Shown here: piece by piece, positions 2,497-4,372 of the stretch | How the letters are laid out: every line of letters begins with the position of its first letter | Numbering within the stretch: position 1 is the first letter of the stretch | Source: Planktothrix mougeotii LEGE 06226 | GTDB lineage: Bacteria; Cyanobacteriota; Cyanobacteriia; Cyanobacteriales; Microcoleaceae | DNA: 40,481 nucleotides | Direction: 5' to 3' | Assembly: GCF_015207485.1 (NCBI RefSeq) | Contig: NZ_JADEWU010000005.1 | Span: forward strand, 116,508 to 156,988 | Program-made: the position numbers and the translations under genes | The notes under the pieces: generated by a model | The model's database searches: none | What the model saw: the letters and a program-made list of their open reading frames with translations, nothing else | What the model was told of the DNA's origin: nothing

Positions 2497-3621
2497 ATGC
2501 CAGATCATTCTTTTTTTGAGCAGCAAAAAGAACAATCCTTAGTTAAAGCTGAAATTGTAGCTAAATATTTTTGGGAGTGGGCTGGAGTGATGATCCCCCA
2601 AGCCAAAAAATGGGGGACAAAAATTGCATATATTGATCTGTTTTGTGGGCCAGGCGTTTATGAAGATGGATCTAAATCTACTCCCATACTAATTTTAGAG
2701 AAGGCAATTAATGATGCAAATATGCAAGAGTTACTCGTAACAATATTTAATGATTGTGATGAAAAGAATACTAAATCTCTAAAAGCAGCTATAGATGCTC
2801 TACCTAATATTAACTTATTAAAAAATCAACCGACGATACAAAACATGACAGTAGGTAGAGAGTTTGAGGAATTTTTTCAGAAAAAAAAATTCATTCCGAG
2901 CCTATTCTTTATTGACCCTTGGGGATATAAAGGATTATCACAACAATTGATTGGATCGGTCATTAAAGATTGGGGTTGTGATTGTATATTCTTCTTTAAT
3001 TATAACCGTATTAATCCTGGCTTAAGTAATCGAGCAGTTGAAAAAAACATGAACGATTTGTTTGGCAAAGAAAGAGCAGATGAGTTGCGATCGCAACTTC
3101 AAACAAAAAGTCCTCATGAAAGAGAACTAATGATTGTAGAATCAATTTCTCAAAGTTTAAAAACAATAGGGGGTGAGTATGTATTGCCATTTTGCTTTAA
3201 AGATGAGAAAGAAGCAAGAACAAGCCATTATCTAATTTTTGTATCGAAACATAAAAAAGGTTATTCAACTATGAAACGTATTATGGCTAAGGCGAGTTCC
3301 AGTACAGAACAAGGTGTACCTTCCTTTGAATATAATTCAGCTACAAGCTCACAACTTCTACTATTTCCTTCACGACCTCTTGACGATTTGGAAAATATGT
3401 TACTAGATGAATTTGCAGGTCAGACATTGACAATGAACGAAGTTTATGAACAGCATAATGTAGGAAAACGTTACATTGAGAGGAATTATAAAGATGCTCT
3501 TTTAAAACTAGAAGATCAAGGCAAGATTATAACAAAATCAGAAAAAAAACGAAGGAAAGGAACATTTGGAGATGAAGTCATCGTTACATTCCCACCAAAA
3601 TCGGAAAATTCTCTGTTTTAG
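2497..3621 (+). CDS. TcmP-like protein (three-Cys-motif partner protein family) with methyltransferase-like motifs
   Basis: The 374-aa protein carries YIDLFCGPGVYEDG (like SAM-MTase motif I hhDhFxGxG) and FFIDPWGY (like motif IV (D/N)PP(Y/F/W)). It is encoded convergently with a DUF5131 gene and overlaps it at the 3' end, the pairing described for the TcmP family. I recognise the family by the sequence pattern only. Confidence 0.6.
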   Translation: MPDHSFFEQQKEQSLVKAEIVAKYFWEWAGVMIPQAKKWGTKIAYIDLFCGPGVYEDGSKSTPILILEKAINDANMQELLVTIFNDCDEKNTKSLKAAIDALPNINLLKNQPTIQNMTVGREFEEFFQKKKFIPSLFFIDPWGYKGLSQQLIGSVIKDWGCDCIFFFNYNRINPGLSNRAVEKNMNDLFGKERADELRSQLQTKSPHERELMIVESISQSLKTIGGEYVLPFCFKDEKEARTSHYLIFVSKHKKGYSTMKRIMAKASSSTEQGVPSFEYNSATSSQLLLFPSRPLDDLENMLLDEFAGQTLTMNEVYEQHNVGKRYIERNYKDALLKLEDQGKIITKSEKKRRKGTFGDEVIVTFPPKSENSLF

Positions 3622-4372
3622 ATTGACGAGTTGATGAAGCAGAATAACTTTGCCATTTCTTCTGATGTTCATACCAAGCTTCAGGCATTTCATCCCAAAT
3701 TTTACCTTCTAATAACCGTCCTCCTGCTTTTGGTGTTCTCCCTCCGACTTGTTTAAAGAAAAATGCTACATTTTCGGCTTCACATTGTTGCTGAATATCT
3801 TTAGCCCATTCTAACTGCATAGGTCGATGTTTTACTCCTGATTCTCCCCCAACAATTACCCATTGAATTCCTTTTAAATTAAGTTCTAACGGCCCCAATA
3901 AGGGTTCACAAGATAGAAAACGAACAGATGCTGGAACTTTTCTTAAATAATCAATTCTATGAACATAGTTTTGATTTTCAACAGAGACTCCCATCCAAAT
4001 ATTATCTGACCATTCTAGTTGAGGAGCAATTTCTACTAATCGCTCATGCCGTTTAGTCAAAATTTGATAAATGTGATGAGGAGTTTTATGAATAACATCA
4101 AACACTTTTTGGAGAAATTCTACAGGAATATCTTCATGAAAAAGATCACTCATTGAGTTAACAAAAATTCGGCTAGGTTTCCGCCATTTTAAGGGTTCTT
4201 CTAATCGTTCTGGATGTAATGTTAAAGCAAATCCATTCTGAAAATTTTGAGTAAAACGTTTGGTAATTGCTTCTGCATAGCAATGGGTACATCCAGGGCT
4301 AACTTTGTTGCATCCGGTTGTCGGATTCCATGTTCTGTCTGTCCATTCTATCCCTGTATTTATACTTGCCAT
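3584..4372 (-). CDS. DUF5131 / phage Gp37-Gp68 family three-Cys-motif protein
   Basis: The N-terminus [35 protein letters not shown] matches the family hallmark (IEWTD.TWNP..GC...S.GC..CYA), a Cx5CxxC three-Cys motif. Its 3' end overlaps the TcmP-like gene by about 38 bp. Confidence 0.65.
   Translation of the reverse strand: [262 protein letters not shown]

Follow-up and report, generated by a model that had tools for sequence, protein, structure and literature searches.

The window analysed here is the whole 40,481-nucleotide stretch at positions 116,508 to 156,988 of contig NZ_JADEWU010000005.1 (assembly GCF_015207485.1) from the cyanobacterium Planktothrix mougeotii LEGE 06226. Within it we examined two convergent genes, tcmP and a DUF5131 gene, which form a typical cyanobacterial member of a named gene pair that is already catalogued as a defence candidate. 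The gene content of the window is cyanobacterial (a histidine kinase, spoIID, plant-type ferredoxins and chlL/chlN), and the neighbours of the pair are housekeeping genes. The same DUF5131 protein, in the same gene order, is found on two Logan metagenome contigs; the closest named relatives are those of Planktothrix agardhii, with 92% identity for DUF5131 and 79% for TcmP. The original prediction, made from the DNA letters, described convergent genes sharing 38 bp and quoted three motif strings (the DUF5131 N-terminus, IDLFCGPG and FIDPWGY); the list of open reading frames (ORFs) in the window confirms the arrangement, and all three strings are present. The features of the pair are the following.

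2497..3621, plus strand: tcmP, ATG start, 374 aa; predicted N-terminal helix, class-I S-adenosylmethionine (SAM) methyltransferase-like Rossmann domain and C-terminal winged helix (residues 279-349)
3584..4372, minus strand: DUF5131 gene, ATG start, 262 aa
3584..3621: 3'-3' coding overlap of 38 bp, encoding just the non-conserved C-terminal tails of TcmP and DUF5131

The family assignments proposed for the two proteins hold. TcmP matches NCBIfam TIGR04474 with 206.4 bits (cut-off 53, E 7.5e-61) over profile positions 1-262 of 263, and DUF5131 matches Pfam PF07505 (phage Gp37/Gp68) with 333.4 bits (gathering threshold 28.9) over positions 1-243 of 243. TcmP owes its name to adjacency to a three-Cys-motif gene, and such a gene adjoins it in the window; with full-length matches above both cut-offs, the Cys triad and the adjacency, nothing distinguishes the window genes at family level from the “three-Cys-motif” pair defined by TIGR04474 and PF07505. 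DUF5131 also matches phrog_2045 (5.4e-97), and the two adjacent genes match both models of the PADLOC candidate system PDC-M30, whose component A is TcmP-like (PDC-M30A, 1.3e-28) and whose component B is DUF5131 (PDC-M30B, 1.8e-109); PDC-M41 is its sister candidate. The PDC systems are phage-defence candidates predicted from genes embedded in known defence systems (10.1101/2024.01.29.577857). The TcmP family is large, comprising 2,836 clusters at 50% identity.

The structural model and the conservation calls for TcmP are based on an alignment of 36 representatives that are 36-54% identical to the query. The AlphaFold model (mean pLDDT 93.3, pTM 0.90) contains a seven-strand Rossmann-like sheet with a beta-6/beta-7 hairpin (strands 43-47, 80-85, 113-115, 135-139, 162-167, 228-235 and 242-250), and agrees with the methyltransferase fold expected from the motifs. 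A Foldseek search of the PDB with this model gave 50 matches at E <= 0.001. Every one of them is a class-I SAM-dependent enzyme, in nearly all cases a methyltransferase; the leading ones are Trm1 (3axs, 2e-6), TYW4, CmoA, RlmJ and TrmM, at 9-12% identity. Like Trm1, RlmJ and TrmM, TcmP has a class-I Rossmann domain with linear motif order, a motif I rich in glycine and, where beta-4 ends, a D-P-aromatic-G/Y motif; beyond the low identity, it differs from them in its extra C-terminal winged helix and in a long helical insert (residues 169-223). The winged helix matches Pfam PF22560 (GMT-like winged helix) with 62.9 bits, and is slightly less conserved than the core (34% versus 38-41% pairwise identity); the literature search did not find the meaning of “GMT” in the Pfam name. 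No Pfam methyltransferase family matches TcmP and the PADLOC oMTase model does so only at E 0.032, while searches of all PDB chains with the sequences and family profiles of TcmP and DUF5131 returned nothing usable.

Motif I of TcmP is IDLFCGPG (46-53, with DLFCGPG at 47-53), and its D47-x3-G51-x-G53 is invariant or nearly so across the 36 members, as is D140-P141-x-G143-Y144 within FIDPWGY (138-144). The FND that follows beta-2 (84-86) is either invariant or at least 90% conserved, and G51, G53, D140, P141 and G143 are invariant in the 36-sequence alignment. DPWGY falls at the end of beta-4 in the model, and we take it to be a variant of motif IV, (D/N)PP(Y/F), nearest to the DPFG of Trm1 and akin to the DPPY of amine-directed methyltransferases. 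Judged by the model, TcmP joins a C-terminal winged helix to a fold of the class-I SAM methyltransferases, and resembles a catalytically competent transferase. A shorter form of 281 aa (TIGR04474, 194 bits) is encoded at 7153-7998 of the fetched locus L125, upstream of DUF5131 and beside a type I restriction-modification (R-M) system; it has no winged helix and, as a comparison of lengths only, equals the 281-position PADLOC model PDC-M41A.

The family-hallmark N-terminal string of DUF5131 occupies residues 8-35 and includes the three-cysteine motif IEWT...GC-x6-C-x2-CY. The cysteines, initially given as Cx5CxxC, are in fact spaced C21-x6-C28-x2-C31, and are invariant in an alignment of 40 sequences; Tyr32, GGESG (175-179) and a fourth cysteine, Cys197, are further invariant features, and the C-terminal tail (231-262) is common to the cyanobacterial members and locus L115. 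DUF5131 has a partial TIM-barrel radical-SAM core fold, for which spore photoproduct lyase (SPL; PDB 4fhc/4fhf) is the best structural match and the nearest radical-SAM fold, a likeness at the level of the fold with 12% identity. Neither SPL model (TIGR04070, TIGR03886) matches DUF5131. The SPL cysteines are spaced x3/x2 rather than x6/x2, SPL has 340 aa against a conserved DUF5131 core of ~230 aa, and DUF5131, unlike SPL, is paired with a methyltransferase-like protein. The sole radical-SAM model that DUF5131 matches is TIGR04471, at 80.6 bits, far under the cut-off of 355. In the classification of RadicalSAM.org, DUF5131 forms Megacluster-5-2, adjoining SPL at 5-3 (PMC9477430). DUF5131 is a radical-SAM-fold protein of the SPL clade, which is proposed to bind a [4Fe-4S] cluster and to cleave SAM.

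Whether the two families travel together could be addressed by a census of their neighbourhoods. When the TcmP alignment was run against metagenome and viral contigs, 116 loci were obtained, and three more came from genomes through a single-sequence query; ORFs were called in the fetched loci, here given L numbers, and searched with both window proteins. These loci are a biased and partly redundant sample. A TcmP relative was present in 119 sequences (118 loci and the window): 102 have an adjacent DUF5131 gene, nine have insufficient flank, and eight have ample flank and no DUF5131. TcmP therefore adjoins DUF5131 in 102 of the 110 informative loci, which bears out the proposed co-occurrence and shows that the two genes are not paired by chance. 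Seven of the eight exceptions have another radical-SAM gene of the same clade as neighbour, PA0069/Rv2578c-like in L032, L098, L114 and L116, and SPL-like in L103-L105, where the pairs are convergent too. The alternative partners were recognized by NCBIfam scans (L032, L098, L103, L114) or by ORF layout and N-terminal sequence (L104, L105, L116), and the TcmP proteins of the three loci in which they were scanned (L098, L103, L114) all score above the TIGR04474 cut-off. The two sets of partners together tie TcmP to radical-SAM enzymes of the SPL clade.

DUF5131, for its part, is not tied to TcmP: it is found in 180 phage records. In eight sampled phages with a solo DUF5131, a longer form of 290-360 aa, no TcmP lies within 3 kb, and the gene occupies early or replication-type regions; annotated DNA-methylase genes are nearby in three of the eight, a “methylase” note in a fourth, and a PAPS-reductase-like gene in two.

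The pair is a mobile, dispensable module. A syntenic locus from a Planktothrix metagenome-assembled genome (L003) aligns with the window on both sides of it (blastn, L003 3459-6136 with window 2-2635 and L003 6141-8342 with window 4569-6762, both at 87% identity), and lacks what lies between.

2636..4568: segment missing from L003, with tcmP from about codon 47, the whole DUF5131 gene and its putative promoter, and about 195 bp of the spacer

L003 keeps merely TcmP residues 1-38, a remnant which indicates that the pair was ancestrally present and later deleted; the missing segment, as aligned, marks the extent of the dispensable module. The pair has a lower GC content than its flanks at each of the loci that were checked, for instance 34.9% versus 38.7% in the window, 38.1% versus 56.5% in Synechococcus elongatus (L122) and 40.7% versus 53.0% in L126. 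The pair is widespread in cyanobacteria, and its housekeeping surroundings are unrelated from one cyanobacterial genus to the next, which points to horizontal spread and not vertical conservation. Vertical inheritance within the cyanobacteria, suggested by an identity of ~70% across orders, was rejected as an explanation because the GC content in S. elongatus is far under that of the flanks and the loci are not syntenic between genera. In the window copy we see a dispensable chromosomal passenger of the present cyanobacterium. Rfam and tRNA scans of the whole window gave zero matches, so that the spacer holds no known RNA element and no integration site linked to a tRNA is present.

Outside the cyanobacteria, the neighbours are of the defence-island type: a type I R-M system, Mrr and DruA in L125; a type III R-M system and AbiEii in L126; and an SNF2 helicase with DUF1156 and DUF499/HEPN in L127 and L128. 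Two Gordonia phages, Easley and Jablanski, carry the pair in the interval from the integrase to the immunity repressor; tcmP of Easley is directly 3' of the repressor gene and shares its strand, and that of Jablanski is close to the repressor. Genes at that position next to the repressor are commonly expressed from the prophage. The phage origin ascribed to the pair stands in part: relatives do occur in prophages, but the window copy lies among housekeeping genes, and other relatives are found in defence islands and cyanobacterial chromosomes.

Two loci have lost tcmP and retained its partner. In Microcystis L138 (6767-7894), which differs from the intact L137 by 3 nucleotides in 1,300, a TGG-to-stop change falls inside the DPW motif of tcmP; in the Aphanizomenon-like L141 (6770-9628), compared with L140, AAA_15/AAA_21 and DUF4435 (PARIS-like) genes stand in place of tcmP, of which only the last 14 codons are left. 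The DUF5131 proteins of both are identical to those of the intact loci. On these sequences DUF5131 would not be lethal without TcmP, unless L138 and L141 reflect assembly errors or very recent events, and its survival after loss of tcmP weighs against a classical R-M relationship. As a separate observation, the L141 site behaves as a defence-gene swap point.

The orientation of the genes varies among relatives, and the question raised with the original prediction, of whether homologous pairs are always convergent and overlapping, receives a negative answer. Among the 102 pairs, 77 are co-directional with tcmP first, 18 convergent, four co-directional with DUF5131 first and three divergent. The convergent pairs occupy a few clades of a neighbour-joining DUF5131 tree (the cyanobacterial members with L115/L119; L101/L109/L113; the singletons L037 and L033); the convergent overlapping layout is thus clade-specific, with cyanobacteria among those clades. 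Overlaps of 4-38 bp are present in 17 of the 18 convergent fetched pairs, and L033 has a 23-bp gap. The overlap is 11 bp in both Microcystis and Aphanizomenon, 20 bp in P. agardhii, 4 bp in Easley and 11 bp in Jablanski; S. elongatus has no overlap but a 1-bp gap. The overlap sequence is not conserved, and involves variable protein tails only. The length in the window has a simple source, as the TAG stop of its relatives (L001, L002 and L050, with 20 bp) reads TCG here.

3601..3621, plus strand: lineage-specific C-terminal extension of TcmP by six codons (SENSLF and stop), by comparison with the junctions of L001, L002 and L050

The overlap seems to be a side effect of close packing in a clade with one gene inverted. 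The alternative is that it serves as a regulatory device, with convergent transcription producing antisense RNA or interference that sets the ratio of the two proteins. The recurrence of overlaps in 17 of 18 convergent pairs, with Microcystis, Aphanizomenon, P. agardhii and two Gordonia phages among the cases, would suit such a device, as would the lack of any terminator-like site that fits between genes that each have their own facing putative promoter. We nevertheless consider it unlikely: length and sequence vary, down to the gaps of S. elongatus and L033; the 38 bp of the window stem from one stop-codon change; only variable tails are involved; and three quarters of the pairs are plain co-directional operons, so that the module works without any overlap. 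Antisense or coupled regulation, which had been taken as implied by the overlap, does not follow from it alone.

Signals read from the sequence suggest how the two genes might be expressed.

4373..4770 (398 bp): divergent AT-rich intergenic region between DUF5131 (minus strand) and spoIID (plus strand), 77.6% AT
4384..4389, minus strand: putative Shine-Dalgarno sequence AGGAGG, 11 nt 5' of the DUF5131 ATG
4413..4442, minus strand: predicted sigma-70-like promoter of DUF5131, TTGACT-18 nt-TATACT, with TG before the -10 box and 10/12 consensus matches
2412..2456, plus strand: terminator-like hairpin with 15-nt arms, then TTTTATTTTG, at the end of the upstream 194-aa MamS/MamX-like gene
2464..2472, plus strand: candidate extended -10 box TGTTAGAAT of tcmP, 25 nt 5' of the ATG

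The AT-rich region does not follow the module, as had been described, and lies upstream of the minus-strand DUF5131 gene, whose promoter-like site and ribosome-binding site it holds. The AT content of more than 80% claimed for it is reached only in the core, 4400-4640 (85% AT); within the window, all the same, no 398-bp stretch is richer in AT, and just 0.2% of stretches of that length equal it. The predicted promoter, a consensus match, is kept upstream of DUF5131 in L002, and in S. elongatus the region upstream of DUF5131 is also strongly AT-rich (26% GC versus ~54-56% for the locus). The spacer appears to be a divergent promoter region shared with spoIID. A repeat search found no structured repeats in it, low-complexity AT matches alone; an identity as a mobile-element end or repeat element was rejected on that ground, and because part of it persists in the deletion locus L003. 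In P. agardhii L142 (5364-5863), a ParD/ParE toxin-antitoxin pair is inserted in the same spacer between spoIID and DUF5131.

On the other side of the pair, the hairpin site is kept in L003, and the terminator-like end of the upstream gene implies that tcmP needs its own promoter. L003 reads TGTTATAAT at the position homologous to TGTTAGAAT, a candidate box that the consensus promoter scan, which needs a -35 hexamer, did not list. No terminator-like site was found in or near the 38-bp overlap, the nearest one on the minus strand lying ~460 nt inside tcmP. The pair would accordingly be driven by two facing promoters, a short-leader tcmP promoter past the terminator and a near-consensus DUF5131 promoter in the spacer, and the 3' ends of the two transcripts would necessarily overlap. 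The coding overlap and the AT-rich spacer both follow in an ordinary way from the layout of the pair.

As to function, the module most likely carries out a two-step, SAM-dependent modification of DNA bases, an unproven reading to which we assign a probability of roughly 0.45. TcmP, as a winged-helix-tethered class-I transferase of the exocyclic-amine methyltransferase type, would bind nucleic acid and transfer a methyl or other SAM-derived group onto a base. DUF5131, as a small radical-SAM enzyme of the SPL clade with its [4Fe-4S] cluster on C21, C28 and C31, would cleave a second SAM to give a 5'-deoxyadenosyl radical, and so rearrange or extend the base or the adduct. Mobile elements would carry the module for use in the conflict between phage and host, where it could mark or protect DNA, or keep invaders out. 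A biological role in phage-host conflict is probable, because the module moves between genomes and is found in defence islands and in the immunity regions of prophages. Nucleic-acid modification or defence, regarded as plausible at the outset, fits both these contexts and PDC-M30: relatives lie in or beside R-M and other defence genes, the same basis on which the PDC systems were proposed, whereas the window copy lies outside a defence island, and is convergent and overlapping where most relatives are co-directional.

A precedent for the second step comes from gp53 of Pseudomonas phage M6, an SPL-like radical-SAM isomerase that rearranges a glycine adduct earlier placed on DNA thymidine, and, in the literature searched, the sole radical-SAM enzyme reported to install a DNA modification (PMC8989533). 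It offers a mechanistic template in that the group it remodels was put on a DNA base beforehand by a second enzyme whose gene lies nearby. Weak matches link M6 gp53 to the PA0069, Rv2578c and rSAM mobile pair B models of NCBIfam, as they do the alternative TcmP partners. The SplB/COG1533 relatives are LexA-regulated in several phyla, which links the clade to DNA; the siting of solo phage DUF5131 genes in early or replication-type regions likewise speaks for a DNA context. M6 gp53 is unlike DUF5131 in having a canonical CxxxCxxC motif and 480 aa, and it is partnered by a kinase, a pyrophosphorylase-type transferase and a PLP enzyme, and by no TcmP.

Several observations weigh against DNA base modification by this pair. 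DUF5131 and M6 gp53 have no similarity detectable by hhalign (probability 0.6%); the x6/x2 cysteine spacing is non-canonical compared with the usual x3/x2 (CxxxCxxC), and a Pfam scan of DUF5131 gave no match to Radical_SAM (PF04055) at E <= 0.1. On the side of TcmP, the group transferred cannot be read from the fold alone, the winged helix is missing from some genes (the L125 form is one example), and the nearest solved relatives are tRNA or rRNA enzymes, at the identity of 9-12% given above, which makes an RNA substrate possible. The presence of DUF5131 without any TcmP in many phages indicates that the two activities are separable. In the window, no defence or phage genes lie in the immediate flanks of the pair. 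The literature search found no functional study of either DUF5131 or TcmP, annotation-level mentions only, in accordance with the original description of the pair as functionally uncharacterised, and PDC-M30 itself is explicitly a candidate system (10.1101/2024.01.29.577857).

The defence contexts would also suit an R-M-like pair, in which TcmP methylates the cell's own DNA and DUF5131 damages unmodified invading DNA by radical chemistry. Convergent genes are a feature of many type II R-M systems, and the parallel extends to a mobile two-gene module with a methyltransferase-like gene facing a second enzyme and a home in defence islands; relatives of the pair lie there among R-M and other defence genes, PADLOC lists the pair as a defence candidate, the Gordonia tcmP genes stand next to or near the immunity repressor, and no other effector domain is present. 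What makes this explanation improbable to us is that L138 and L141 keep an identical DUF5131 beside a dead tcmP, as a toxic arm should not outlive its protecting methylase. DUF5131 moreover stands alone in many phages, most paired members are co-directional, the winged helix is not hypervariable (34% versus 38-41% for the core) as specificity domains usually are, and no nuclease domain was found in Pfam, NCBIfam, PADLOC and PHROG profile scans of the window proteins.

We hold it to be just as improbable that the substrate is tRNA or rRNA, with a Trm1/RlmJ-like TcmP and DUF5131 as a radical-SAM RNA modifier together retuning or protecting translation during infection. The solved relatives of TcmP would allow this; the other half of the module speaks against it, since the nearest radical-SAM fold is that of a DNA enzyme, SPL, the alternative TcmP partners belong to the SplB/COG1533 group with its SOS/LexA regulation in several phyla, and solo phage DUF5131 genes lie among DNA-replication and recombination genes, some with annotated DNA-methylase genes near them. 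Least probable of all is DNA repair, in which DUF5131 would reverse a base lesion like SPL with TcmP as its lesion- or DNA-binding partner, to the benefit of light-exposed cyanobacteria: SPL as best structural match, a fourth invariant Cys and an invariant Tyr32 that recall the Cys/Tyr radical relay of SPL, the LexA regulation of SplB/COG1533 relatives and the wide cyanobacterial distribution speak for it, but LexA-box-like sites are fewer than chance predicts (5 in the window versus 8.9 expected, none within 4 kb of the pair), the defence-island and prophage-immunity sites, low GC and frequent loss and replacement mark an accessory conflict gene, and the full set of catalytic-type methyltransferase motifs survives in TcmP, though binding alone would not require them.

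The remainder of the window contains further features that we note in their own right. About 5 kb from the pair, at 9728-12974 on the minus strand, a three-gene defence-like cluster abuts chlN; it encodes a GmrSD_N/DUF262 protein (11793-12974), an AAA_15/AAA_21/DUF3696 ATPase (10687-11796) and a 319-aa protein without a Pfam match (9728-10687). Two plant-type [2Fe-2S] ferredoxin paralogues of 98 and 96 aa lie in tandem at 6447-6743 and 7159-7449 (minus strand), and the syntenic L003 has three. Between chlN and chlL, a 500-aa DUF5331 ORF (14608-16110, minus strand) includes a 42-bp tandem repeat (15128-15411; 6.8 copies, 94% identity), which would give a repeated acidic motif of 14 residues. 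A perfect tandem repeat of 23 bp in 2.5 copies (17821-17877) ends at the start codon of a ShlB/POTRA outer-membrane gene (17877-19703, minus strand), and just beyond it lies the sole stretch of the window other than the spacer with more than 74% AT (17132-17532). A 166-aa retropepsin-like (gag-asp_proteas) ORF (26370-26870, plus strand) is located downstream of a gene for a 758-aa RTX-repeat protein (23829-26105, plus strand).

The window copy itself adds little more than an intact, clean case from the cyanobacteria, for which L003 provides the matching natural deletion. The comparative results narrow the hypotheses: TcmP is tied to one radical-SAM clade, and an R-M-like toxin/antidote arrangement is disfavoured by the natural tcmP knock-outs. 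A broader proposal, which we put forward only tentatively and consider doubtful at present, is that TcmP-type transferases and SPL-clade radical-SAM enzymes (DUF5131, PA0069/Rv2578c-like and SPL-like) form a widespread, unrecognised class of two-step base hypermodification in bacteria, archaeal viruses and phages, one that would yield an undescribed DNA base and provide, through its chemistry, a new way of self-marking or anti-phage defence that needs no nuclease. If the two-step mechanism proposed for the pair is right, radical-SAM chemistry on DNA would join the known mechanisms of bacterial defence and epigenetics.

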